From assembly GCA_009729775.1 (NCBI GenBank), contig GCA_009729775.1_4081.1: a stretch of DNA of 64,000 nucleotides; one strand, 5' to 3'. This stretch comes from Escherichia coli. GTDB taxonomy: Bacteria; Pseudomonadota; Gammaproteobacteria; Enterobacterales; Enterobacteriaceae. A model generated the notes under the pieces. That model made no database searches and was not told the origin of the DNA. It saw only the letters and a list, made by a program, of their open reading frames with translations. Made by a program: the position numbers and the translations under genes. Positions 2,813-52,029 of this stretch are shown piece after piece (position 1 is the first letter of the stretch; the number at the start of each line of letters is the position of its first letter).

Positions 2813-3394
2813 TTAATCCATCATAAGTGGGATAATTGCCCATATCTTTTTCATAATCATATCTTCAGTAAAAACAAATGTTTTAGGAGCAGTATATGAT
2901 ATTGACACACCAAATGGAAGTTTGATTGCATCATCAATTATATTATGAATATCAAACCATGTTTTAACATAATCATACGGTGGAAGTTCATGAATTGTAC
3001 TTAACTGAAAGTAATTCTCTTCACCAAAATCACTATATTCAATTTCACAAATTTTAGTGAATTGATGATTCCATTTAGATATAATACTATTTTTATTATT
3101 GTACATAGTAGTTCTATGCATAAAACCATTTTTGCTAGTATGATTTGATATTACGTTTTCTTCAATGTCAGTATCTATTTTAAAATTCATATCAAAGTTG
3201 TAGTACGGACTTGACGATTCTTTGAATTTTAAATGTAAATTGCGATTGTTATTAATTTCAATTTCAATACAAAACACATCTGAATCAAAACGATTAAACT
3301 TGTAATCGTTATCTTCCGGTAGATTCTGTATTTTTTTCATAATACTAAGCATAGGGTGTACTACACTTTTAATAAAATCATTTGTTATTTTCAT
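2813..3394 (-). CDS. family A paralog
   Basis: core EENYFQLSTI. Confidence 0.7.
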   Translation of the reverse strand: MKITNDFIKSVVHPMLSIMKKIQNLPEDNDYKFNRFDSDVFCIEIEINNNRNLHLKFKESSSPYYNFDMNFKIDTDIEENVISNHTSKNGFMHRTTMYNNKNSIISKWNHQFTKICEIEYSDFGEENYFQLSTIHELPPYDYVKTWFDIHNIIDDAIKLPFGVSISYTAPKTFVFTEDMIMKKIWAIIPLMMD

Positions 3395-3887
3395 AGTATT
3401 CCTTTAGAACTTTATATGATTCAACAATACTATCTTGTGTATAATTTGAACTATATACAACAGCACTTGTTTTAGTTGACCATAGATATGACATAAAGGT
3501 TATAACACTACTACATGGACTTAATGTATTGTTTTGAAATTCAATTTCTTCAATGTTATCAGTACTGGTATAGATGAATTGGAAAGTATCCATTGATTTA
3601 TTGGACAGCGATACTATAGTAGAATCCGTACCAGGACTATACATGAATGTCTCATTGCTAATAGTACTATCATTAGTATATGATGGTTTAGGAATATAAA
3701 TCAAACGCATGATATCACGCTCCAGACCTGACTTATTACTTTCCACCAAAGAAATCATATCTATATTTGTTATATGTTCAACACTGACATGGAACTTTTT
3801 GTTTAGAATTACATCTTTTGGTGAATTTTTATATGAAGACAAAATCTCATACAGCTCAACCAATTCTCGTGCATTTAATAAACTCAT
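3378..3887 (-). CDS. family A paralog (divergent)
   Basis: core EEIEFQNNTL. Confidence 0.6.
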   Translation of the reverse strand: MSLLNARELVELYEILSSYKNSPKDVILNKKFHVSVEHITNIDMISLVESNKSGLERDIMRLIYIPKPSYTNDSTISNETFMYSPGTDSTIVSLSNKSMDTFQFIYTSTDNIEEIEFQNNTLSPCSSVITFMSYLWSTKTSAVVYSSNYTQDSIVESYKVLKEYYENNK

Positions 3888-4890: not shown

Positions 4891-5461
4891 ATTTTTCCTT
4901 AACCAATTCTATATTTTGAAGTAGTGTATTCAGAACATCAGTCTTGTAATTGATAAAATCATTGTACATAACTAGTTCACCACAATCAAGAACTTTTGCA
5001 GTATCGTAACAAAGCATTAAGTACTCGAATTCTTTGTAATTGTCCAACAATGATTTCTGGAAAATGAATGCATCTCGAATATCTTCACTTTGGTCTAATT
5101 CTGGTGGAACATCCAACCCAATAAAACCATCATCTTCACTGAAATCAGATTCTACAATTTTATTAATTTTTTCATGTAATGCATTCGCAAATACCATATT
5201 AGAAGAAATAGAACCAATACGTTCACGATTTCTGGATGTGCGAATGTACATAGTAATCGTATCCCATGAACTTTTAATTTTTTTAGAAAATTCATAAGTT
5301 TTATATACATCCAACTGAACTGATCCAAAACGATGTTTGGATTTGTTTTCAATTTTCAATCGATAATCATCAAATTCAACAATTTCTGTAATGTCATGAA
5401 TCTCTGAAAGTTCTGCAATGTCATGCATGAGTCTCAAAATTTTAGTTCTGATATGGTTCAT
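4877..5461 (-). CDS. family A paralog
   Basis: core DAFIFQKSLL. Confidence 0.65.
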   Translation of the reverse strand: MNHIRTKILRLMHDIAELSEIHDITEIVEFDDYRLKIENKSKHRFGSVQLDVYKTYEFSKKIKSSWDTITMYIRTSRNRERIGSISSNMVFANALHEKINKIVESDFSEDDGFIGLDVPPELDQSEDIRDAFIFQKSLLDNYKEFEYLMLCYDTAKVLDCGELVMYNDFINYKTDVLNTLLQNIELVKEKYERL

Positions 5462-6036
5462 TGTGCATCCTCGAATTTAACAGGTACATGTTCATTAATG
5501 AAATTCTTAAGAGCCTGTACTAAATCCTCTAATTCTTTTGTACTGTATTTTAAAATAGTTTTAAAGTGAATCAAATCTTTTCTTTCCATGATCTTTGGAA
5601 TTTTATATGCTAACTCTAAACAGCGTACAGTACTGGCATCATACAAAAGGTTTGCGTTGAACATTAGAACATTGTATTCATCAGATGAAATTTTATAATT
5701 ATATGTATCAATCACTTCATGTGTGTATAAATTCTTATACACAATTTTATTCTCACTGAAGTTTGAGCAAACGCACAGATAATCGTTGTAAAATGAAGAA
5801 CGATAATCTTGTTTACGTTGTACATCTGCTATGATTTGTAATACTGTATATTTTTCTTCAGAATCCAACTCAATGTTAGCATAACTGCTCGCAGTTTCAG
5901 ATACAAGGATATTGATGTTATATTTCTCATTAACTTTAATGTACTGGCGTGAGCCAGTATCAGGAATGAACTTAAAACAATGCTTCAGAAGTAATGTGAC
6001 TTCTTTAATTAATTCAGTACTCATAGATTCCTCCAA
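5458..6036 (-). CDS. hypothetical protein (possible divergent family A)
   Basis: 192 aa ORF; RBS GGAGG upstream. Confidence 0.55.
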   Translation of the reverse strand: MEESMSTELIKEVTLLLKHCFKFIPDTGSRQYIKVNEKYNINILVSETASSYANIELDSEEKYTVLQIIADVQRKQDYRSSFYNDYLCVCSNFSENKIVYKNLYTHEVIDTYNYKISSDEYNVLMFNANLLYDASTVRCLELAYKIPKIMERKDLIHFKTILKYSTKELEDLVQALKNFINEHVPVKFEDAQ

Positions 6037-10536: not shown

Positions 10537-10837
10537 CTATTTCACATGGATAACAATTCATAATTTTGTTCAATAGAATCTGGTATTTTTTAATAACTTC
10601 TATATCAATTTTTATATTACTATTAAAAACTAATGATTCTTGAAATAATTCCCCCTCGTCAAGTGAAGTAAAATCATTTATCTTCAAGGGTATATTGTTG
10701 CATCGCAAGGAGAATGTATTTTCATCACGAATTAAAGTATAGAAATCATTATGTTTTTTATTATAATCAAATTTAACAAGTAGTAGTTTAATATGAGTAG
10801 CGTACATTACTTTAACTAATTCAGATTCACGTCGCAT
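10496..10837 (-). CDS. family A paralog
   Basis: core EGELFQESLV; start approximate. Confidence 0.65.
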   Translation of the reverse strand: MRRESELVKVMYATHIKLLLVKFDYNKKHNDFYTLIRDENTFSLRCNNIPLKINDFTSLDEGELFQESLVFNSNIKIDIEVIKKYQILLNKIMNCYPCEIGGHMQFKSKMYEL

Positions 10838-11259
10838 ACCATACCTCTCTTATGATGCAAACATTCTTGCATAATGTGTTGTATTTTTCGTAACAGAAAC
10901 ACATCCAGTTCATTAAAAACAGTACTGTACTGGAACATCTCTTCTTCCCCGTACTCAGTTAAATCATCAATTTCATCTCTAGAAACAGCTACAATATTAA
11001 AACCACGTGTACTACAATAACCCTTAGTAAGATAATATATGTACTTGTACTCTCCGTTGATATCTAAGAGATCTTGTGTGATACAGAAGCTTTTGGGTGA
11101 CAGTTTATCATCAGGAACCATATGCCTTGCTTGTACATAGCAACGGATACCATCACCTATACTATATGTAATAACTTCAAATTCAATCTTCATAGGTGAA
11201 TATAATCCTTTTATATTGCTCAGGTGCAGTACTGAAACGTTTGATTGGATAATTATCAA
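10816..11259 (-). CDS. family A paralog
   Basis: core EEEMFQYSTV. Confidence 0.65.
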   Translation of the reverse strand: MIIIQSNVSVLHLSNIKGLYSPMKIEFEVITYSIGDGIRCYVQARHMVPDDKLSPKSFCITQDLLDINGEYKYIYYLTKGYCSTRGFNIVAVSRDEIDDLTEYGEEEMFQYSTVFNELDVFLLRKIQHIMQECLHHKRGMVCDVNLN

Positions 11260-38927: not shown

Positions 38928-39129
38928 TTATTTGTTTTCTTTTCGTAATTTCTTTTCAGCTTCAACTACATTCTTATTTGTGCAAACTACTTCATCGGAT
39001 AAATCTAACTTCCATCCAGACAGGGGTTTGGTTTGTTTCTTTGCTGCTTTGTTCGCTTTCATGATGTTTCCTTTTTAATTAAGATGTAAACTATTATACA
39101 GTACTAAGATACTTTGTCAATCTATTTTA

Positions 39130-39524: not shown

Positions 39525-39689
39525 TCACTTACTCATATTAACAGGCTTAAACGGTGGCAATGTAAGATCATGCGGGGTTAAACTGTCATGCTTTGCCCAC
39601 ATACCAGAATCCCTACGGAATAATACCTTATTGTTTTTTATACGATAAAAGTTACCATTATCAGTGTTTTTATACCATACCATTTTCAT
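39525..39689 (-). CDS. hypothetical small protein (not in ORF track, below 60 aa)
   Basis: 54 aa ORF MKMVWYKNTDNG... with TTGCAA-16-TATAAT and GGAG RBS upstream. Confidence 0.4.
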   Translation of the reverse strand: MKMVWYKNTDNGNFYRIKNNKVLFRRDSGMWAKHDSLTPHDLTLPPFKPVNMSK

Positions 39690-39759
39690 TTACTCCTGGT
39701 TATGTCGTTATTAAACATTATACGGGGTTATAGATAGTTTGCAATTAGTTTTTCAGTAC

Positions 39760-39870
39760 TAGCCACCAGCATATAATAGATACATTTATGCACCCTGTGG
39801 GCTGATTTGTTTCTATGCGTATATAATAGCAAAGGGACTGACCGGAGTCAATCCCTTTTTTAATTCTTTT
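39760..39870. repeat. repeated intergenic composite element, copy 3
   Basis: as above. Confidence 0.6.
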
Positions 39871-40019
39871 TAAACTTGTTTTGGGTTGCGATATGTGATA
39901 GCGTTCGGGTACATTTGTTTAATGTTATTCCATGCCTGGTTAACATTGTAACCACTTGAGCGAATCAGTTGGTTACTACCGACACCTTGAAACACTACTT
40001 CGAATAAGAATTCTTTCAT
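39870..40019 (-). CDS. hypothetical small protein (below track cutoff)
   Basis: about 49 aa ORF MKEFLFEVVFQG...; ATGA overlap with upstream ORF. Confidence 0.3.
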   Translation of the reverse strand: MKEFLFEVVFQGVGSNQLIRSSGYNVNQAWNNIKQMYPNAITYRNPKQV

Positions 40020-40189
40020 GCTTTCACCTCGCGATCTGCTTTACCTTTACGCCACGCTGTTGCTAATTGTTCGCGTTGCCATAAGTCGAGTGATACGTAA
40101 AGTTTTGCATTATCACCCTTCGGATACTCGCCAGTAGTACCAATCCGATAAAACAGATCTTTCAGTACTGATAATTCCACCTGGATCAT
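40016..40189 (-). CDS. hypothetical small protein (below track cutoff)
   Basis: about 57 aa ORF MIQVELSVLKDL... Confidence 0.3.
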   Translation of the reverse strand: MIQVELSVLKDLFYRIGTTGEYPKGDNAKLYVSLDLWQREQLATAWRKGKADREVKA

Positions 40190-40297
40190 TGTATTACTCC
40201 TGATTGTGTTAGTACTTCTACGATGGCATGAATGATCATAAGTACAGCTAACACAACAATCATCGGATTCATTTGCATAAGCTGTACTCCTTATATA

Positions 40298-40510
40298 TTA
40301 ATCTTTCAGCCAATGATCTTGAATGAATTTTTCACAGAATCCCTGTTTCATAGATTCTAACAGGCGTTCACGGTGAGCGGCGGCATATTGCTCAGTACTA
40401 TGCGTTACGCCAGGTTGATAACGTGAAACACCGTCTGGTCCGATATATTGAACATCCCACGGTTTTTCGTTAGTATCAGACCATTTACGAACGATTAGTT
40501 GACCTTGCAT
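40298..40510 (-). CDS. hypothetical protein
   Basis: 70 aa ORF with promoter cassette and AGAGGA RBS. Confidence 0.55.
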   Translation of the reverse strand: MQGQLIVRKWSDTNEKPWDVQYIGPDGVSRYQPGVTHSTEQYAAAHRERLLESMKQGFCEKFIQDHWLKD

Positions 40511-40527
40511 GTTTCTTTCCTCTTAGT

Positions 40528-40587
40528 GGGGAGAATCATTTCTCCCCTTCATGTAACTTATTATACAGTACTAGATTACATTGTCAA
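40528..40587 (-). promoter_or_regulatory. early promoter cassette (TTGACA-16-TATAAT) and hairpin GGGGAGAA-tcat-TTCTCCCC
   Basis: -35 at 40582-40587, -10 at 40560-40565, hairpin 40528-40547 (coordinates on plus strand). Confidence 0.6.
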
Positions 40588-40593
40588 TAGTTT

Positions 40594-40917
40594 TTATTCA
40601 CCTTGTTTGAATATAGTTTTCTCCATTGATTCCATGATTGCAACCAATACAGCATGGATCTCACTTAACGCGGCATCACTAAAAGCATTAATGAATAGGC
40701 AATCATTCTCGCGAATATTTTTAATGTACTTATCAGCAGTGGTTGCGAATTCATTCAACGGCAGATCAAATGCTTTATCCCATAATGGATGGCGTAACTG
40801 TAACAGTACTGGATTATCACGGTCACCAGGTGAGAAAGTGCCTGTAATGAAACATACACCAGGGATACTTTCGAATTGACAACGAACTTCTTTTGTGATA
40901 GTAGTATGAATATACAT
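40594..40917 (-). CDS. hypothetical protein
   Basis: 107 aa ORF. Confidence 0.55.
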   Translation of the reverse strand: MYIHTTITKEVRCQFESIPGVCFITGTFSPGDRDNPVLLQLRHPLWDKAFDLPLNEFATTADKYIKNIRENDCLFINAFSDAALSEIHAVLVAIMESMEKTIFKQGE

Positions 40918-40944
40918 TTATTTTTATCCTCTATTAAATTAATA

Positions 40945-41133
40945 TTACAGTTTATGAATCAATTCTTTATCCAAGCGATAGCGAACATTATTGATTGTAA
41001 CTGCATTGTTTTTAATGCTACGCTGTACAGGTCCACCAGCAATAACAAACGTTGCCTTATTGCCCCGAACGATGATAGCACTTCCAGGATTACCGAAATC
41101 ATCTTGTACTAAAATGCTTGATAAGTTTTGCAT
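40945..41133 (-). CDS. hypothetical protein
   Basis: 62 aa ORF. Confidence 0.45.
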   Translation of the reverse strand: MQNLSSILVQDDFGNPGSAIIVRGNKATFVIAGGPVQRSIKNNAVTINNVRYRLDKELIHKL

Positions 41134-41149
41134 TTGTCTTTCCTTGTAG

Positions 41150-41208
41150 TGGGGAGAACTATTCTCCCCTTCATGTAAACAATTATACAGTACTGAAAAC
41201 TAATTGCA
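41150..41208 (-). promoter_or_regulatory. early promoter cassette (TTGCAA..TATAAT) and hairpin
   Basis: reverse complement of intergenic region. Confidence 0.5.
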
Positions 41209-41212
41209 AGTA

Positions 41213-41569
41213 CTATGATAAAATCATTATAGGATATTCACTATCAATCAGTACTTCAAAACCAAAACTTTCATACCATTCTTTAAGATTAAATGAGTTA
41301 TCTTCTCCCGTATCGCATTCTAAGATGATACAATCTGAATCATCGGCCGCATCAATAAAGGCATTCATTAATTCAGTACCTTCACCGTTACCGCGATTAT
41401 CGGGATCAACATAAAGAGAATCAATAAACGCTACACGATCATAATCAAGATCTGGTGCAACAATGCCACGTTTAACAAACCAGTACTGCAATTGTGCTAC
41501 TTTGCCTTGTACTTGATAGCCAGTGATCTCACCATTGTCTGTAGTACGCGTGATATGTTGTATACCCAT
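41213..41569 (-). CDS. possible GNAT-like acetyltransferase (weak)
   Basis: segment VAFIDSLYVDPDNRGNGEGTELMNAFIDAA resembles GNAT acetyl-CoA binding motif. Confidence 0.35.
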   Translation of the reverse strand: MGIQHITRTTDNGEITGYQVQGKVAQLQYWFVKRGIVAPDLDYDRVAFIDSLYVDPDNRGNGEGTELMNAFIDAADDSDCIILECDTGEDNSFNLKEWYESFGFEVLIDSEYPIMILS

Positions 41570-41632
41570 GATTTCAATCCTCAGTTAAGATATAAAATAT
41601 TATACACTAACTAACAGTACTGTCAATACTTT

Positions 41633-41890
41633 TTATCTCATAGATCTATGCCAACAATTACGCGGTTGACGTTTAAAAATACTATCATGATCCTCCTGGC
41701 AAGTTATGCAGTACTTACATCCCTTAACGGCCTGGCGACGTTTCTCAGGGATTATATCACCGCAGTCGAGGCAATGTATCAGTGATTCTATTTGTGCGTT
41801 AATTTGCGTTCTAGCGTGGTTAACAGCGGCCTGAATCACTGCGTTAATCTCGTCTTGCTCGGCCCCATCTTTCGTGAATCCTACAGCCAT
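41633..41890 (-). CDS. TraR/DksA-family C4 zinc-finger protein
   Basis: CLDC-x17-CITCQ (C-x2-C-x17-C-x2-C) signature in 85 aa protein. Confidence 0.6.
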   Translation of the reverse strand: MAVGFTKDGAEQDEINAVIQAAVNHARTQINAQIESLIHCLDCGDIIPEKRRQAVKGCKYCITCQEDHDSIFKRQPRNCWHRSMR

Positions 41891-42119
41891 TATTTTAACC
41901 TCATTATAAAAATACTATAGTACTGTAATGCGACAATAATATTACTTGTTCTTACTTTTTCCAATCCACATGATACAACATATTCATCCCCATATGTTCG
42001 AAACGAAACACCATGAAAATTTTTATACACTTGCACTTCTAATCATAACCTTTTGTCTAACCAACTGCGTAGAATTATACTACTTTACGCAAATTGATCA
42101 AGTATTGATCAGATCATTT

Positions 42120-42200
42120 TTTGATCAATATTATACAGTTACATTTGTGCACCCTATGGGTTAGTGCCTTGTGTCCGGCTTATGTACTTATTATACAGTA
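42120..42200. repeat. variant element with GCACCCTATGGG core and CCGGCTT hairpin
   Basis: similar to 50110-50200. Confidence 0.4.
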
Positions 42201-42221
42201 CTTGATGATATTGTCAATAGT

Positions 42222-42419
42222 TTATTTTAATTTTTTTCTGTCATTGATTAATGCTTTCAGTACTATACTAATAACTTGCAATGATTCATCAATGACTATA
42301 AAATTATTTTCTTTCATTAGATGATAGTTACCATTGATTGTATATTCTAATGAGTACTGTTTACGTTTAATTTTTGATAATGTATCAATTTGTTTTTGTA
42401 CTGATTTCATGCTAATCAT
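42222..42419 (-). CDS. hypothetical protein
   Basis: 65 aa ORF. Confidence 0.45.
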   Translation of the reverse strand: MISMKSVQKQIDTLSKIKRKQYSLEYTINGNYHLMKENNFIVIDESLQVISIVLKALINDRKKLK

Positions 42420-42526
42420 TGTTAAACGTCCTGTAATGCATTCTAACGAGATAAACGGTTTAGTACTGGCATTGTATAGGGTAAATGATTAAAGCCCACC
42501 AGCGTTAACCAGTGGGCTATAATCTT

Positions 42527-42670
42527 ACATCTTGCGGATAATCTTAACAGTATCTTTCACCGATTTACCGTCTTGCTGACATTGTTCGATCATCGCGTAT
42601 TGTTCTGCGGTCAGATCCTCGCCAGTTTTTGCCAGTACTGCGTCGATGAATGAATCCAGTGCGATCATTT
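42527..42670 (-). CDS. hypothetical small protein (below track cutoff)
   Basis: 47 aa ORF MIALDSFIDAVLAK... Confidence 0.3.
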
Positions 42671-42767
42671 TATTTCTCTCTTAGGTTAAGTTAACTACTG
42701 TTGATAAAAGTTATTATACAGTACTATCAAACATTGTCAATAGATTTAATAGTACTGGTAATATATT

Positions 42768-42947
42768 TTAGCGGTAATCGTCGTATGCTTTATTAACCTG
42801 GCGAATGTAACTTTCAAAGGCTTCGTCTACCGTTTCATACTCCCGAACATAATCACCATAGGAAACTACATACATCCCTTTTTGATCTTCAAACGTCATG
42901 ATGATAGAATCCAGTCCGATGATTTCAGTTTTTGCGATAATAGCCAT
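42768..42947 (-). CDS. hypothetical protein
   Basis: start at MAIIAKTEI; repeated promoter cassette upstream. Confidence 0.5.
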   Translation of the reverse strand: MAIIAKTEIIGLDSIIMTFEDQKGMYVVSYGDYVREYETVDEAFESYIRQVNKAYDDYR

Positions 42948-43038
42948 TTTAGTATTCCTTAAATTAATATGCGTTGTCTTGATAAAAGTTATTATGCCAG
43001 TACTATCAAACGTTGTCAATAGTACTGTGATAATATTT

Positions 43039-43251
43039 TTAGTTAATGATAGTCAGTGTAAAATTGTAATCCCCTGCCTGGTATAGTACTTTATCGCCGA
43101 ACGTGCCAACACGTTTCATATTGCAATAGATACCCATAACATTTTTTACATCTTTGATATTCCGAACGCCAGTGATATCCTTGTTGAAATTTTCATGATC
43201 AGAAAATAAAACTTGTTTTGCATTTTTCAGTACAGTGCAGATATTAGCCAT
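43039..43251 (-). CDS. hypothetical protein
   Basis: 70 aa ORF. Confidence 0.5.
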   Translation of the reverse strand: MANICTVLKNAKQVLFSDHENFNKDITGVRNIKDVKNVMGIYCNMKRVGTFGDKVLYQAGDYNFTLTIIN

Positions 43252-43270
43252 TTCGATTTCTCTCTGTTAG

Positions 43271-43338
43271 TAGGGAAGTACTGTTACTTCCCGTGCCTTG
43301 ATGTAAACTATTATACAGTACTATAATCTATTGTCAAA
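43271..43338 (-). promoter_or_regulatory. early promoter cassette (TTGACA-16-TATAAT) and hairpin GGGAAGTA-acag-TACTTCCC
   Basis: reverse complement of intergenic region. Confidence 0.5.
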
Positions 43339-43351
43339 CTATTTTTTAATA

Positions 43352-43693
43352 TTATTCAAAATCTTCTGGACCGGACTGATAATCATCCTCACCGTATGCA
43401 CTTTCTAACTTCTCGCCAGTGTAATCATCAGTTAGTGAGTCATCCTCATAGTTCACGTCTACGCCCGTGATGTAAAACTGGCTATCGTCTGGATCATTGA
43501 AATTAATTTTCTGAATGTTTACAATAACTGTATTGATACCCAGGACACAGCCATCAGCCGTTACAAAGTACTGATATTTTTCACATCCACCACTATTGAA
43601 ACCGTAATTGATTTCGGCCCGACCATCATTTAAACGCAGTGCCTGAGCGATGATTTCGTTTTCAAAGTTAGATTGAGCAATTGCAATAGTCAT
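43352..43693 (-). CDS. hypothetical acidic protein
   Basis: 113 aa ORF. Confidence 0.55.
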   Translation of the reverse strand: MTIAIAQSNFENEIIAQALRLNDGRAEINYGFNSGGCEKYQYFVTADGCVLGINTVIVNIQKINFNDPDDSQFYITGVDVNYEDDSLTDDYTGEKLESAYGEDDYQSGPEDFE

Positions 43694-43789
43694 GATTCGT
43701 TTCCTTATTACCAGGGGAAACCGTTTCCCCTTGCGATGTAAAACATTATACGCCTATTGATATAGTTTGCAAGTACTTTTTATCAAATA

Positions 43790-43920
43790 CTTTAAAATAG
43801 TTTTCAGTACTCAATCATTATACAATAGATACACTTATGCACCCTGTGGGCTAGTGAGCTATCTCTCAATGAATACATAATAGCAAAATGGCTGACCGAA
43901 GTCAACCACTTTTTTTCATT
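43790..43920. repeat. repeated intergenic composite element, copy 4 (more diverged hairpin)
   Basis: as above. Confidence 0.5.
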
Positions 43921-44054
43921 TATTTTTAGCTTTTAGAATCGCCGCCTTTCGCGTCATGCCTTGCTTGATGTACTCCTTTACTTTCGCTTTACGTGCTTTC
44001 GCTTTATCTGCTTTCGTTTTAGGAGTACTGTAAATTAAACCGTTAGGATTCATT
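43917..44054 (-). CDS. hypothetical small basic protein (below track cutoff)
   Basis: 45 aa Lys-rich ORF MNPNGLIYSTPKTKADKAKARKAK... Confidence 0.3.
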
Positions 44055-44139
44055 TAAATCACCATAAAGAATAGATAGGTTACTAACAATGCCGCCAGTA
44101 CTGCACCGACCAGGGCCGAACTATAGTAAGCTAATGATT

Positions 44140-44292
44140 TCATTTTTTAGCCTGAAAGTAATGTTTAATTTGTGCGGCGGTCAGTGCACAATTACGCAGG
44201 AAGTTTTCTGTATAACTTTTACGAGTACTGAAAGAGTACTGACCTTTCCCGTTACCGATAGTAACATCAAACCGAGCGTTATATTGTTTCAT
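44140..44292 (-). CDS. hypothetical small protein
   Basis: start at MKQYNARFD; track MVLP extension is hairpin. Confidence 0.45.
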   Translation of the reverse strand: MKQYNARFDVTIGNGKGQYSFSTRKSYTENFLRNCALTAAQIKHYFQAKK

Positions 44293-44309
44293 TTTGTTTC
44301 TCCTAGTAT

Positions 44310-44382
44310 CGGGGAGAACCATTCCCCCCCTCTATGTAAACAATTATACAGTACTGAAAACTAATTGCAAGTACTTTCTAAG
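44310..44382 (-). promoter_or_regulatory. early promoter cassette (TTGCAA..TATAAT) and 5' hairpin
   Basis: reverse complement of intergenic region. Confidence 0.5.
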
Positions 44383-44567
44383 TAATGTTTATAAGCTGAA
44401 TCAACCACTCTTTCGATAACATACGCTAACGGCACGTATCCAACTACATGACTACAATAAAAAGGACTACGATTAGAATCATCGTATGCAAATACTTTTT
44501 CAGGATCTGCATCAATCACATACATATTAACCTTTAAGATGTCTATCTTATCCTGTACAGTAAGCAT
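44361..44567 (-). CDS. hypothetical protein
   Basis: start at MLTVQDK; upstream part of track ORF overlaps another small ORF in a different frame. Confidence 0.45.
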   Translation of the reverse strand: MLTVQDKIDILKVNMYVIDADPEKVFAYDDSNRSPFYCSHVVGYVPLAYVIERVVDSAYKHYLESTCN

Positions 44568-44571
44568 ATTA

Positions 44572-44742
44572 CGCCGCCTTATCAGTACTGGCAACCGGAC
44601 GGATACGGGCCATTTCATGGGCTTGTTCCACACTGTAACGCTCATAAAGGCGGCATTCTTCCGGTGTAGGAACAGCATCAATACGTTTCATTGGTTTAAT
44701 GATGCTTTCAACTTCATTCAGTACTTGATTAACGTTCATGGT
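44572..44742 (-). CDS. hypothetical small protein (below track cutoff)
   Basis: 56 aa ORF MNVNQVLNEVES..., stop 2 nt before next ATG. Confidence 0.35.
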
Positions 44743-44790
44743 ATAATCCCCAATATAAGCGGCCTAAATCGACCGCTAACGATGTTTTGA

Positions 44791-45060
44791 TTAATAGGTG
44801 TATGGTTGACGCTCAAACAATGATTGCACGTTGTACGCCCCGCTAATGGGCTTTGCTGGCAAATCAATTTTATATTGTTCACGCTTAAAAATAATAAAAC
44901 GGCAATTGTTTTTAACATCAAAATTGATTGAACGTTCCAATAGCTTTCCTTCGTGTACAAATACAAGATAACCGCTTGCTACTTGTTTTGTAGTACTGGT
45001 TGCAACCATTGACCGACGAACATGAGTACCTGCATCGATTAAAGTACTGATATTTTTCAT
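44791..45060 (-). CDS. hypothetical protein
   Basis: 89 aa ORF. Confidence 0.5.
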   Translation of the reverse strand: MKNISTLIDAGTHVRRSMVATSTTKQVASGYLVFVHEGKLLERSINFDVKNNCRFIIFKREQYKIDLPAKPISGAYNVQSLFERQPYTY

Positions 45061-45140
45061 TTTACTATCCTCTTAATTTGATTTAATTTCTTTCCCCTAT
45101 GCAGACACTATATCAAAGTATCTGCATAAAGTAAAGCTAA

Positions 45141-45485
45141 TTAAAGATCTTTTTTGCGTTTAACATCAGTTACCGAACTGTAAACAGTGATATTATTGTC
45201 ACGGCAAAAACGGGAAAGATAAGAACCGCGTAAAAACTCTTTATCTTCCATATTAATAACCTTGCTAAATTCTTCCATTGCTACAGTGTCAAAGTGATCC
45301 CCGTATCCATATTGGAACGGCACGTTTACTACTTCAATAAAATTACCATCAATTTCTACGTCTACACTTAAAGAGAAATAAGTGTTACCATATGAAGCCT
45401 GGAACCAACGCCGAGCGGCAATATGTACAACTTCAACAGAAGACAGGTTGATATTTTGTGCTGAGATAGTGTTGATGTTAGCCAT
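45141..45485 (-). CDS. hypothetical protein, paralog of 38517..38840
   Basis: shared motifs, C-terminal VKRKKDL. Confidence 0.6.
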   Translation of the reverse strand: MANINTISAQNINLSSVEVVHIAARRWFQASYGNTYFSLSVDVEIDGNFIEVVNVPFQYGYGDHFDTVAMEEFSKVINMEDKEFLRGSYLSRFCRDNNITVYSSVTDVKRKKDL

Positions 45486-45566
45486 TTTAATTTCCTCTTA
45501 GTTGTCTTGATAAAATCTATTATGCCAGTACTATCAAACTATGTCAATAGTACTGTGATAATAATT

Positions 45567-45779
45567 TTACTTACTTTGCTTTGATGCTTTATGTTGTGCA
45601 ACTGCCATCACTACATCAGCACGAACAAAGTTAGCAACCGTATCAGTATAATATTTGATTGCATCGTCAATATCTGCGAACATCCGATACATTCCGCACC
45701 ATGATACTTTATAACCCGCTTTCACTTGTTCCAGTTTAACCAGTGAATTGTTTACTTTGATTTTTGTAATGATAGCCAT
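45567..45779 (-). CDS. hypothetical protein
   Basis: 70 aa ORF, N-terminus MAIITK similar to 42768..42947. Confidence 0.5.
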   Translation of the reverse strand: MAIITKIKVNNSLVKLEQVKAGYKVSWCGMYRMFADIDDAIKYYTDTVANFVRADVVMAVAQHKASKQSK

Positions 45780-45862
45780 TTTTGTTTCCTCTTAGTTGTC
45801 TTGATAAAATCTATTATGCCAGTACTATCAATCTATGTCAATAGTACTGTGATAATAATTTT

Positions 45863-46006
45863 ACTTACTTTTTGCTTTCTTTATTGCTTCCACCTGGTCG
45901 GCCCACTCTTTACCCCATACTTGAGCGTTATAGTGATACTGACAAAGAGCAACGCCCCGTTTCAAACCAGTGATAGATTTTTTACCACATTGACAAGTTT
46001 TCATTT
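45863..46006 (-). CDS. hypothetical small Cys-containing protein (below track cutoff)
   Basis: 47 aa ORF MKTCQCGKKS...CQYH with its own promoter-hairpin cassette and RBS. Confidence 0.4.
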
Positions 46007-46020
46007 TTAGTTTCCTCTTA

Positions 46021-46086
46021 GTGGGGAGAATCATTTCTCCCCTTGATGTAATGTATTATACTTTATCCGATTTACTTTGCAAGTAC
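46021..46086 (-). promoter_or_regulatory. early promoter cassette (TTGCAA..TATAAT) and hairpin GGGGAGAA-tcat-TTCTCCCC
   Basis: reverse complement of intergenic region. Confidence 0.5.
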
Positions 46087-46089
46087 TTT

Positions 46090-46317
46090 TTAGTTTAATT
46101 CATCCAGGCATAAGATACGATCTACGCCGAGATCCGTTAAGCTAATGGTTGGCACTTGATAGGTTTCAATGTATTCTACACTAGCCCACTGACCGAACTC
46201 ATTCACCGCCCAGGTATTCATTGCAAAATGTAATTCCGCACCTTTCTTATTAGTAATTACAGCAACAGTAGAAGAATTGCCAGTAGTACCAGATACGCGA
46301 GTGATTACGATAGCCAT
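46090..46317 (-). CDS. hypothetical protein
   Basis: 75 aa ORF. Confidence 0.5.
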   Translation of the reverse strand: MAIVITRVSGTTGNSSTVAVITNKKGAELHFAMNTWAVNEFGQWASVEYIETYQVPTISLTDLGVDRILCLDELN

Positions 46318-46750
46318 TGTTTTGATTCCTATTCAGTAGTTGATGTATGTATTATGTCAGTACTTAAAACTATTGTCAAACTATTTTTTAAAGACTATCT
46401 ACGATAGCTGCCGTTTCAATAATAGACTTACCTTTTTTTGAACATGCAATAACTGCTTTAAATTCCTTTGATGACCATTCTTTTTTACTGCATACTAACA
46501 TTACTTGCATAGTGAAACAATCCAGTTCATAAGTATTCATCTTTAAATCCTCAGTTAGTTAAGGTGTCTTGCCTTGATGTAACTAATTATACGCCTTTCT
46601 CTTAATCGTGCAAGTACTTTTTATTACTTTTTGCAAAATACTTTAAACGCTCTCAATCGCATTCTAACGGCCTTAACTCCACCAGCTAGGGCGATGCATC
46701 AGATAATCAGTTTAATGCGTTAGAATCGATTCTATGAGGTGCTGACGGTC

Positions 46751-48159: not shown

Positions 48160-48266
48160 TTTCTTATTCCTTAGTTACCAGGGGAACCGCTCCCCTATGC
48201 AAAACATTATACGCGTTTAAAAACTATTGTCTAGTATTTTAATAAAAAGTATTTGAAAAATAGTTG

Positions 48267-48396
48267 TTGACAAGTGCATCCAGTACTGGCATAATACTTA
48301 CATAAAGACGAGATAGTCACTAACCCACAGGGTGCATAGATCCGTCTATTAAATGATTCAGTACTGCAAAATAAAGGGGATCAATTGATCCCCTCT
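48267..48396 (+). ncRNA. candidate small RNA unit: plus-strand promoter (TTGACA-17-CATAAT), conserved CCCACAGGGTGCAT core, hairpin
   Basis: promoter at 48267-48295, no ORF, ends at palindromic hairpin; core shared with other copies. Confidence 0.25.
48365..48396. terminator. palindromic hairpin, possible bidirectional terminator
   Basis: GGGGATC-aatt-GATCCCC with T-rich flanks on both sides. Confidence 0.4.
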
Positions 48397-51345: not shown

Positions 51346-51563
51346 TTCTACTAATACTTTTAAAATAGTTTTCTTTCTATATAGGAGTACTATCATTCAG
51401 TACTGAATCAACCAAATCACTACTATACCCCATAAAACGGCCTCAGCCGCTTTCTAACGCATTAATACACCTAAGCTATACATTTGCACCGCCACCAGCT
51501 AACCAGGGCTTTATAGGCCGTTTAAGGGCGTTAAATTATTTTCAATTATTTTGTTTTTAGCTA

Positions 51564-51700
51564 TTGACTCAGTACAAAAAAAGCGTATAATTACTACATA
51601 GACGCGAGAAAGCGGATACCCCAGGGGGTGGGAAGATCCGTCCAAAATTCATATAATTTAAAAAGGATACACTCCCGCACCTTAGCAGGTCATAGCACTT
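51564..51700 (+). ncRNA. candidate small RNA unit driven by TTGACT-16-TATAAT
   Basis: promoter 51564-51591 in non-coding region; downstream GACGCGAGAAAGCGG...GATCCGTC element related to 48300 copy. Confidence 0.2.
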
Positions 51701-51778
51701 TCTCAGTACTGAATCATAGTACCATAGTACGCCCCTGGATGGCAAGCAAATTAATTAAAACTTTTTACATCCAGGGTA

Positions 51779-51870
51779 TTGCTTTATTTTTCCAGTACTG
51801 TATAATAGTTTCATCAAGTCGAGAAAGACTCAAGCCCACCGGGTGCATAGTTGTATCTAAAATTCAGTAC
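51779..51870 (+). ncRNA. candidate small RNA unit driven by TTGCTT-16-TATAAT
   Basis: promoter 51779-51806; downstream GTCGAGAAAGACTCAAGCCCACCGGGTGCATAG element. Confidence 0.2.
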
Positions 51871-52029
51871 TGAATTATTTTTTAAAAATATCCATCCAGG
51901 CGGTTGACATATCCATCAAAAAGATAGATAATGATTCCAGATTCAGAAAAATCTAACTCCAGATACTGCGGGGAAACCATCCCCACGCGGTAGGGGAACT
52001 ATTGGAAAAAACAAAATAAAAATTTTGAT

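Follow-up and report, generated by a model that had tools for sequence, protein, structure and literature searches.

Ten short open reading frames of an Asteriusvirus-type jumbo coliphage are very probably genuine micro-protein genes

Introduction

SPO1 gp37-60 is said to be a terminal-repeat module of early and host-takeover genes (Stewart et al. 1998), and the lambdoid 'morons' (Juhala et al. 2000; discussed in PMC2839356) are reportedly accessory genes that come singly, each with a promoter and a terminator of its own. For the Asteriusvirus-type jumbo coliphages considered here, we know of no two-step DNA transfer, unlike in T5/BF23. Early genes carried in terminal repeats are described for phage K (long terminal repeat genes; PMC9241854) and for T5/BF23 (first-step-transfer pre-early genes; PMC10644984). 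In phage CBB, which is related to the phage studied here, RpoD-like promoters are concentrated before short hypothetical genes that are thought to act in early host takeover (PMC5259590). In the T4-type phages RB49/phi1, PeSL (promoter-early stem-loop) cassettes flank ORFans in hyperplastic regions (PMC2839356, Arbiol et al. 2010; PMC4122927, Comeau et al. 2014). In this paper, we analyze ten short open reading frames (ORFs), designated s01 to s10, on the minus strand of a 64,000-nucleotide stretch of DNA (the window) that is filed under Escherichia coli (assembly GCA_009729775.1, contig GCA_009729775.1_4081.1), together with the promoter cassettes and the repeated non-coding element among which the ORFs lie.

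The window is DNA of an Asteriusvirus-type jumbo coliphage, whose relatives PBECO4, 121Q, and SP27 show ~90% nucleotide identity to it. A megablast search with the 39-47 kb region against GenBank phages returned 97 records, nearly all from Asteriusvirus jumbo coliphages (SP27, E9.1, fEgEco12, JP4, PBECO4, 121Q, and phAPEC6 among them), and the best record showed 88% query coverage and 91% identity.

Results

Ten short ORFs show codon-level conservation

We conclude that the ten ORFs are very probably genuine protein-coding genes for micro-proteins of 29-57 amino acids (aa), on the strength of comparative sequence evidence. An earlier note on this DNA had proposed ten short minus-strand genes in the region, and all ten ORFs were found, with lengths of 29-57 aa. 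The positions it gave were exact for s01, s02, and s03 and shifted by 1-9 nt for the other seven: s04 had been placed at 40195-40285 (7-9 nt off), s05 at 42527-42670, s06 at 43917-44054, s07 at 44057-44146, s08 at 44572-44742, s09 at 45863-46006, and s10 at 46386-46541 (actual coordinates, stop codon included, are in Table 1). The ORFs are absent from the ORF track solely due to its 60-aa cutoff, as the note had said, and its mention of ribosome-binding sites holds for every start, where Shine-Dalgarno (SD)-like motifs lie 4-9 nt upstream when the minus strand is read directly. The presence of ORFs by itself is not above chance, with 103 ORFs of at least 25 aa in these 9 kb. What sets the ten ORFs beyond chance is the pattern of their conservation.

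Conservation of the reading frames in related genomes, the check that had been set beforehand, was found for all ten ORFs. We compared homologous stretches from 13 Asteriusvirus genomes, a divergent metagenomic jumbo phage, Salmonella phage SE_PL, and three Phapecoctavirus-type phages; the loci of relatives were taken from GenBank phage records, and IMG/VR gave 2 loci. In tblastn searches, each ORF matched relatives over its full length at 76-100% identity, ATG, stop, and open frame were retained in 1-14 relatives, and all indels kept the frame. The proposed frame was the sole stop-free frame of the six for ten of ten ORFs. It also had the lowest ratio of nonsynonymous to synonymous substitution rates (dN/dS) of the six, at 0.05-0.31, compared to 0.6-6 in the other five frames, except for the antisense frame that shares its wobble position. 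Variable sites by codon position, pooled over the ten ORFs, numbered 76/39/173 (P=1.6e-20), and the excess at third positions was significant for each single ORF (P from 0.045 to 9e-5; counts in Table 1). These counts and the dN/dS values come from codon alignments restricted to Asteriusvirus. Moreover, gene order is the same in SP27, 121Q, PBECO4, fEgEco12, and others, with starts and stops conserved, and homologues beyond the genus were found for s01 (three unrelated phages), s10 (Munch), s03, s05, and s08 (SE_PL), and s09 (Phapecoctavirus).

The region supplies its own negative control. Two ORFs of 33 aa (43804-43905) and 34 aa (39728-39832) lie on top of copies of the non-coding element described below (43786..43913 and 39739..39859, respectively) and are not coding: they scored 15/15/14 and 10/7/11 for variable sites at the three codon positions, and they show stops and frameshifts between element copies.

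Several points weigh against the coding interpretation. Informative sites are few in the 29-30-aa peptides (singly, s07 reaches P=0.016 and s04 P=0.028), s01 has a single close ortholog, which differs from it by 5 substitutions, and s10 has just three Asteriusvirus orthologs among the fetched loci. The tested frame is favoured by the construction of the codon alignments from tblastn hits; for the control frames, identical nucleotide columns were used. None of the ORFs gave a Pfam, NCBIfam, or PADLOC match above cutoffs, and profile and structure searches gave no PDB sequence match and no specific fold match. In addition, s08 may be a crippled allele.

The competing explanation that survives best, although we consider it unlikely, is that some of the ORFs are decaying or dispensable remnants, namely s08 as a truncated allele and the sporadic s01 and s10. 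Indeed, s08 has 56 aa where most relatives have 90 aa, with ~106 nt missing, and s01 and s10 are absent from 12/13 and 10/13 Asteriusvirus loci, respectively. However, the 56-aa allele of s08 recurs at 98% identity in 121Q, its cluster (≥90% identity) counts 18 proteins of 56 aa, and for s01 and s10 there are remote homologues over the full length, the presence or absence of these two genes going by whole cassettes, not by decay. It is very improbable that the conservation serves a function of the DNA or RNA (a regulatory RNA, the AGTACT motif, or promoter spacing) instead of translation. The region is dense with promoter cassettes, copies of a hairpin element, and a 13-fold excess of AGTACT, which occurs inside 5/10 ORFs; yet constraint of this kind gives neither a 3-nt periodicity of substitutions nor an absence of stops confined to one frame, it does not give amino-acid-conservative divergence down to 35-50% identity, and each ORF is preceded by a suitably spaced SD site. 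Finally, the idea that the ORFs are chance frames in AT-rich intergenic or leader DNA, which would draw on the abundance of such frames, on the ~90% identity of close relatives through recent common ancestry, and on the few differences in s01, is hardly credible and already largely refuted by the codon-level tests and non-coding controls, given the third-position excess, the stops of the other five frames in the same alignments, the in-frame indels, the 35-50% identical homologues in other genera, and the failure of truly non-coding ORFs of the same region in the same test.

The ten genes are already catalogued

The ten genes are already catalogued as hypothetical proteins and are thus not new. 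Every one is annotated as a coding sequence (CDS) in at least one GenBank/RefSeq relative, and public protein collections already list the exact peptides of 9/10 as 'hypothetical protein'. In RefSeq 121Q they are genes 300 (s02), 299 (s03), 298 (s04), 291 (s05), 287 (s06), 284 (s08), 280 (s09), and 278 (s10); s07 is annotated in phAPEC6 (gp520c), fEgEco12 (g022), E9.1, JP4, and WPEC3, and s01 in PBECO4. Four of the ten (s02, s03, s05, and s06) match PHROG families.

Many exact peptide matches are filed as 'Escherichia coli' (e.g. WP_196775012.1 and WP_155851215.1) and lie on contigs of 345-358 kb, which implies that whole jumbo-phage genomes are contained in bacterial assemblies.

Properties of the individual genes

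The s01 gene has AGGAG 3 or 9 nt upstream of its two candidate ATGs. PBECO4 has an annotated, intact ortholog with 98% identity, and Enterobacter phage FENT2, Salmonella phage SSBI34, and E. coli phage DanielBernoulli have homologues that align over the full length at 43-50% identity. The product of s02 matches phrog_37188 (E=3.6e-40); the gene is intact in 13 relatives with a dN/dS of 0.09. For s03, the match is to phrog_10572 (E=5.9e-27), dN/dS is 0.25, and the frame is intact in 14 relatives, including the Salmonella jumbo phage SE_PL (36% aa identity). The s05 protein matches phrog_34103 (E=8.3e-38) and has the low dN/dS of 0.05; its frame is intact in 13 relatives within Asteriusvirus, and SE_PL and a metagenomic jumbo phage have versions at 67% identity. 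An exhaustive HMM search of 1.84 billion representatives with this family yielded 8 clusters only, six of them with 45-52-aa proteins.

The composition that the earlier note had ascribed to four of the genes was borne out: hydrophobic for s04 and s07, Lys-rich for s06 (14 K+R among 45 residues), and with 3 Cys plus His for s09. The s04 gene has AAGGAG 8 nt upstream and is intact in 10 relatives (dN/dS 0.31), and Turkey5 has a 29-aa version that is 52% identical; s07 is intact in 13 relatives (dN/dS 0.18). Their best 19-aa Kyte-Doolittle windows score 2.65 (s04) and 2.67 (s07), which exceeds the single-pass criterion (~19 or more residues with mean hydropathy above ~1.6), and the hydrophobicity is kept in divergent orthologues. 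These two products are predicted to be single-pass inner-membrane peptides. The s06 protein matches phrog_29913 (E=3.2e-32; dN/dS 0.22), is present in 32 phage records, and occurs in in-frame length variants of 39, 44, 45, and 47 aa; it could be a basic, possibly nucleic-acid-binding peptide.

In s08, residues 1-40 align with the 90-aa proteins and the C-terminus has diverged, the missing stretch being counted relative to SP27 (dN/dS 0.26). The 56-aa allele also occurs in several phage contigs of E. coli assemblies.

For s09, dN/dS is 0.11, and intact versions are found in 9 relatives within Asteriusvirus and, at 83%, in Phapecoctavirus phiWec186. A mechanically drawn ORF reaches 46034, where its ATG is part of the loop of the hairpin in the 5' untranslated region (5'UTR); the N-terminal extension is unconserved between clusters, and AAGAGGAAA stands 6 nt upstream of the shorter start. 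Hence the 47-aa version, which the earlier note had given, is taken as correct. Among s09 sequences, C4, C21, and H24 are invariant, and C6 is found in 6/7, with Tyr in the other. The AlphaFold2 (AF2) model of s09 (pLDDT 83) gave no fold match, and the protein may be a Zn-binding mini-domain followed by a helix. For s10, GAGGA lies 7 nt upstream of the start, dN/dS is 0.27, and 12 phage records contain the gene, among them that of Salmonella phage Munch (46%). Its AF2 model is a three-helix bundle with pLDDT 95 that gave generic fold matches only; the model suggests a soluble three-helix protein-binding module. Word-indexed remote-homology searches with s09, s10, and s05 returned close relatives only.

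Two candidate assignments were rejected. A helix-turn-helix (HTH) or sigma-region-4-like reading of s05, s06, and s10, prompted by a C-terminal 'G-K-S-x-x-E/D-T-A' pattern, was unsupported: Pfam and PDB sequence searches gave it no support, and no HTH match came from the s10 model, a confident but generic three-helix bundle. A likeness of s09 to a relic of an Endo VII/HNH-type zinc domain was dropped, as a PDB profile search gave chance hits only and Foldseek nothing.

Three further small genes or ORFs lie nearby. The 48-aa gene, which the earlier note had not listed, is intact in 7 close relatives, has variable sites of 1/0/5 (P=0.018), and is annotated in 121Q (gene 293), fEgEco12 (g029), WPEC3, Turkey5, JNE01, and PBECO4. 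The 50-aa gene that precedes s07 appears in the ORF list as 60 aa extending to 44322; that ATG is inside a hairpin loop, and relatives annotate a 153-nt CDS at this place. A 44-aa Lys-rich ORF, likewise unlisted, had no homologue in the fetched loci.

Promoters and transcription units

Promoter-like sites on both strands of the 9 kb numbered 57, compared to 35 +/- 5 in shuffles. The minus strand accounts for about 25 near-consensus sigma70 promoters (eight matching at 12/12, five at 11/12, and about ten at 10/12 positions), and 41/53 minus-strand matches to a looser pattern in the whole window fall within 32-52 kb. A hairpin of the form GGGGAGAA..TTCTCCCC, or a variant of it (-12 to -15 kcal/mol), is present in 7-8 of the ~25 cassettes, about a third. 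This G-run/C-run hairpin sits between the -10 box and the SD site and has no U-tract; the other cassettes have an unstructured leader, TTTTATCAAGACAACTAAGAGGAAA.

A promoter-hairpin cassette of their own had also been named as one of the signals of these genes. Strictly, this holds for s09 only. The s01, s05, s09, and s10 genes each have their own TATAAT promoter (-35 boxes TTGACA, TTGCAA, or TTGCAC, spacing 16/17), and among them only s09 has the strong G/C hairpin (-13.9 kcal/mol). By contrast, s02, s03, s04, and s07 are internal operon genes, and the first gene of their 3-4-gene mini-operon carries the promoter-hairpin cassette. The start-stop overlaps stood as claimed, with ATGA at the s04-s03, s03-s02, and 50-aa gene-s07 junctions and s07 and s06 abutting as TAAATG.

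The predicted units are of two kinds (Table 1). The monocistronic ones run from P39744 to s01, from P42740 through s05 to its hairpin at 42518-42493, from P46082 and its hairpin to s09, and from P46613 to s10. The predicted operons run from P40587 and its hairpin through the 70-aa gene, s04, s03, and s02 to the terminator at 39858-39831; from P44370 and its hairpin through the 50-aa gene, s07, and s06 to the terminator at 43912-43885; and from P45135 through an 89-aa gene, s08, and a 68-aa gene. Host sigma70 RNA polymerase would transcribe the genes from these near-consensus promoters right after infection, the ATGA and TAAATG junctions would couple translation in the 70-aa-gene and 50-aa-gene operons, and several units would end at intrinsic terminators. 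The promoter type points to early expression.

Table 1. Coordinates of the micro-protein genes, neighbouring ORFs, predicted transcription signals, and element copies in the window (ORF coordinates include the stop codon)
Feature	Position	Strand	Description	Variable sites (codon positions 1/2/3)
44-aa Lys-rich ORF	38928..39062	-	perfect promoter and SD site	
s01	39525..39689	-	54-aa basic protein, possibly 52 aa from ATG at 39683; monocistronic	1/0/4
s01 promoter	39717..39744	-	sigma70-type TTGCAA-16-TATAAT	
Terminator of s04-s03-s02 operon	39831..39858	-	predicted intrinsic; hairpin holds -35 box of next promoter	
s02	39870..40019	-	49 aa; last of 4-gene mini-operon; start overlaps s03 stop (ATGA)	8/3/22
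s03	40016..40189	-	57 aa; start overlaps s04 stop (ATGA)	16/6/29
s04	40186..40278	-	30-aa hydrophobic peptide, predicted single membrane span	15/3/18
5'UTR G/C hairpin of 70-aa gene operon	40528..40547	-	GGGGAGAA-ATGA-TTCTCCCC, -13.9 kcal/mol	
Promoter of 70-aa gene, s04, s03, s02	40560..40587	-	consensus sigma70, 12/12	
48-aa gene	41890..42036	-	GTG start; stop overlaps start of DksA-like gene	
Terminator-like hairpin right after s05	42493..42518	-	AGCCCAC..GTGGGCT then T-rich; read from sequence	
s05	42525..42668	-	47-aa acidic protein, monocistronic cassette	2/1/10
s05 promoter	42713..42740	-	consensus sigma70, 12/12	
Terminator after s06	43885..43912	-	predicted intrinsic	
s06	43916..44053	-	45-aa Lys-rich basic protein, pI 10.6; last of 3-gene mini-operon	9/8/26
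s07	44054..44143	-	29-aa hydrophobic, predicted single membrane span; start overlaps stop of upstream 50-aa gene (ATGA)	5/1/10
50-aa gene	44140..44292	-	first of s07/s06 operon; AGGAG 7 nt upstream of ATG 44292	
Promoter of 50-aa gene, s07, s06	44343..44370	-	sigma70-type	
s08	44569..44739	-	56 aa; short allele of gene of 90 aa in most relatives; middle of 3-gene operon	11/12/24
Promoter-like site of 89-aa gene, s08, 68-aa gene	45107..45135	-	9/12, TG extension	
s09	45861..46004	-	47-aa Cys/His-containing basic protein; monocistronic promoter-hairpin cassette	3/2/15
s09 5'UTR hairpin	46023..46042	-	GGGGAGAA-ATGA-TTCTCCCC, -13.9 kcal/mol	
s09 promoter	46055..46082	-	sigma70-type	
s10	46388..46540	-	50-aa protein, monocistronic cassette	6/3/15
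s10 promoter	46586..46613	-	TTGCAC-16-TATAAT	
Element copy	34577-34474	-		
Element copy	36500-36373	-		
Element copy	39859-39739	-		
Element copy	42219-42101	-		
Element copy	43913-43786	-		
Element copy	50213-50091	-		
Element copy	48259-48387	+		
Element copy	51563-51652	+		
Element copy	51772-51893	+		

Single-gene presence or absence follows the cassettes

Pairwise blastn comparisons showed that presence/absence differences between close relatives end in promoter cassettes. The breakpoints are at 39527/39750 for s01, 41178/41616 for a GNAT gene, and 40595/40945 for a 107-aa gene; those of s10, at 46330/46573, are equivalent positions just past two successive -10 boxes. These cassette-bounded indels indicate modular shuffling of the PeSL kind. 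In the proposed mechanism, the repeated promoter, hairpin, and SD cassettes would serve as recombination points, at which small genes could be gained, lost, and exchanged between phages.

A single-gene presence/absence difference with ends in repeated cassettes also occurs at 45166-45773 of the window.

In a more sensitive nucleotide search, parts of the 39-47 kb region were common to unrelated 135-150-kb myoviruses (Phapecoctavirus, Justusliebigvirus, and rV5-like phages) at ~75% identity. Several of the genes in question lie at 42703-46317. This sharing implies that phage families with a common host have exchanged early-gene cassettes horizontally, and PeSL-like exchange fits the occurrence of s09 and its neighbours in Phapecoctavirus.

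A conserved non-coding hairpin element

An element of ~120 nt is present in 9 copies in the window (Table 1). Each consists of a sigma70-type promoter, 20-28 nt, a near-invariant R-CCC-AYN-GGGU-GC hairpin, and then ..GUAUCUAU. A bidirectional terminator encloses the -35 box in four of the copies. The element also occurs in RaK2, K64-1, Muenster, fENko-Kae01, CBB, PHA46, 7t3, and Hallingskeid, at 76-82% identity and 5-10 copies per genome. It is a feature of Rak2-like jumbo phages of several genera, where it is usually unannotated and located in terminal repeats. An Rfam search with the element gave no match, and a structured RNA formed by it would apparently be undescribed.

Upstream of the core, a hairpin of 3-5 bp with a purine-rich loop was found in 57/85 unique copies, with 18 stem sequences, compared to 35 in shuffles; this covariation comes from our own hairpin parsing with a lenient shuffle control. 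The core itself shows a compensatory CCU..AGG change in one CBB copy. RNAalifold on a MAFFT alignment recovered the core hairpin only, MAFFT failed to register the variable upstream hairpin, and a stem joining the two flanks of the element was no better than in shuffles (mean z = -0.65). Some copies (one at 48259-48395 of the window, two in RaK2) are oriented against all genes and lead into an intrinsic terminator; these look like small RNA (sRNA) genes of ~95 nt.

We considered whether the small genes and this multi-copy, promoter-proximal structured RNA form one early control module of the terminal repeat, in which one or more micro-proteins act on the RNA, and regard this as a decidedly long shot. 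In such a module, s06, which has a distant homologue with an Arg-rich stretch, might be an actor on the element RNA, and the outcome could be antitermination of the N/nut or put type, working through the many cassette hairpins, or an RNA-protein switch that governs early expression. Co-distribution gave no support to a link between s06 and the hairpin: homologues of s06 are confined to Asteriusvirus, whereas the element is far more widespread.

CDSs are annotated on the element in the relatives ELP-22 (5042-5143), JP4 (5524-5625), and WPEC3 (10799-10900), and these fail the coding test. Opposite-strand CDSs in relatives (e.g. ELP-22 836-955, 1061-1213, and 3222-3416) look like over-calls.

An excess of AGTACT

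No hexamer is more frequent in the window than the palindrome AGTACT, which has 253 sites compared to 19.3 +/- 4.3 in shuffles. CAGTACTG occurs 60 times, and the 5' flanks are T-rich and the 3' flanks A-rich. AGTACT is found in promoters (AGTACTTGCAA and AGTACTGTATAAT) and within genes in all three codon phases, and there are AGTACT deserts at ~18.5-26.2 kb and 28.9-33.2 kb. In every Rak2-like locus examined (Asteriusvirus, SE_PL, RaK2, and CBB), the excess was 15-21-fold, compared to only 0-3-fold in those Phapecoctavirus loci with which some genes are shared. Literature searches for AGTACT in connection with jumbo phages, or for promoter studies of this genus, found nothing specific.

Position relative to the genome end

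For fEgEco12, direct terminal repeats of 20,993 bp were mapped by restriction analysis (PMC13070987). Position 1 of fEgEco12 aligns to 52911 of the window, and the inner end of its repeat aligns at ~33.1 kb. Moreover, GC skew changes sign near 52 kb, coinciding with the mapped fEgEco12 genome end. Together, these two observations suggest that the window spans a genome end or a concatemer junction. By synteny, the ten genes would lie midway in the equivalent of the terminal repeat (window ~33.1-52.9 kb) and would be transcribed inward from the genome end; a location within the terminal repeat of this particular phage is thus suggested by alignment to its relative. Both s10 and s06 are present twice in records that hold both repeat copies. 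Repeat-borne DNA is expected to be the first to enter the cell.

Discussion

With a display cutoff of 60 aa, about a third of this early region's genes go unseen: at least 12 of the roughly 30 genes at 38.5-47.5 kb fall below that length. Annotation also errs in the other direction, where ORFs on the conserved non-coding element have been called as CDSs in some GenBank relatives. Judging from their context, the micro-proteins most likely have accessory roles as host-takeover, membrane-acting or membrane-targeting, or anti-defence effectors, which makes them candidates for such functions in jumbo phages. As the ten genes were already catalogued as hypothetical proteins, finding them adds little; the non-coding element and the AGTACT excess are more unusual than the genes.

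The closest counterparts of the ten genes are the annotated small proteins of Asteriusvirus (121Q genes 278-300, PBECO4 AGC34927, and phAPEC6 gp520c). These are syntenic orthologues, 76-100% identical, of equal length and with the same neighbours, and nothing substantive sets them apart. This genome does have its own combination of cassettes, with s01 and s10 present, which most relatives are without, and the short allele of s08.

In the terminal-repeat modules of SPO1, T5/BF23, and phage K, and by synteny probably in this phage too, many tiny genes annotated without function are placed in a long direct terminal repeat behind host sigma70-type promoters. In contrast to this shared layout, there is no sequence homology to those modules, and the early timing and terminal position proposed here derive from synteny with fEgEco12.

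The cassettes resemble the PeSLs of T4-type phages in their strong sigma70 consensus promoter with an AT-rich upstream region, their poly-G/poly-C stem-loop, and their SD site with start codon, as well as in being repeated in many intergenic regions and in bounding single-gene indels. They differ in that the lineage here is a Rak2-like jumbo phage, the hairpin is downstream of the -10 box, in the 5'UTR, only about a third to a half of the cassettes have it, and the cassettes carry the lineage-specific AGTACT. The likeness is one of sequence features and indel boundaries; terminator or attenuator action of the stem-loop and mini-circle formation are traits of PeSL cassettes.

Finally, as in the lambdoid morons, genes such as s05 have a promoter and a terminator of their own. 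Here, unlike in the morons, the flanks are conserved repeats that apparently mediate exchange, and the genes share the orientation of their neighbours.

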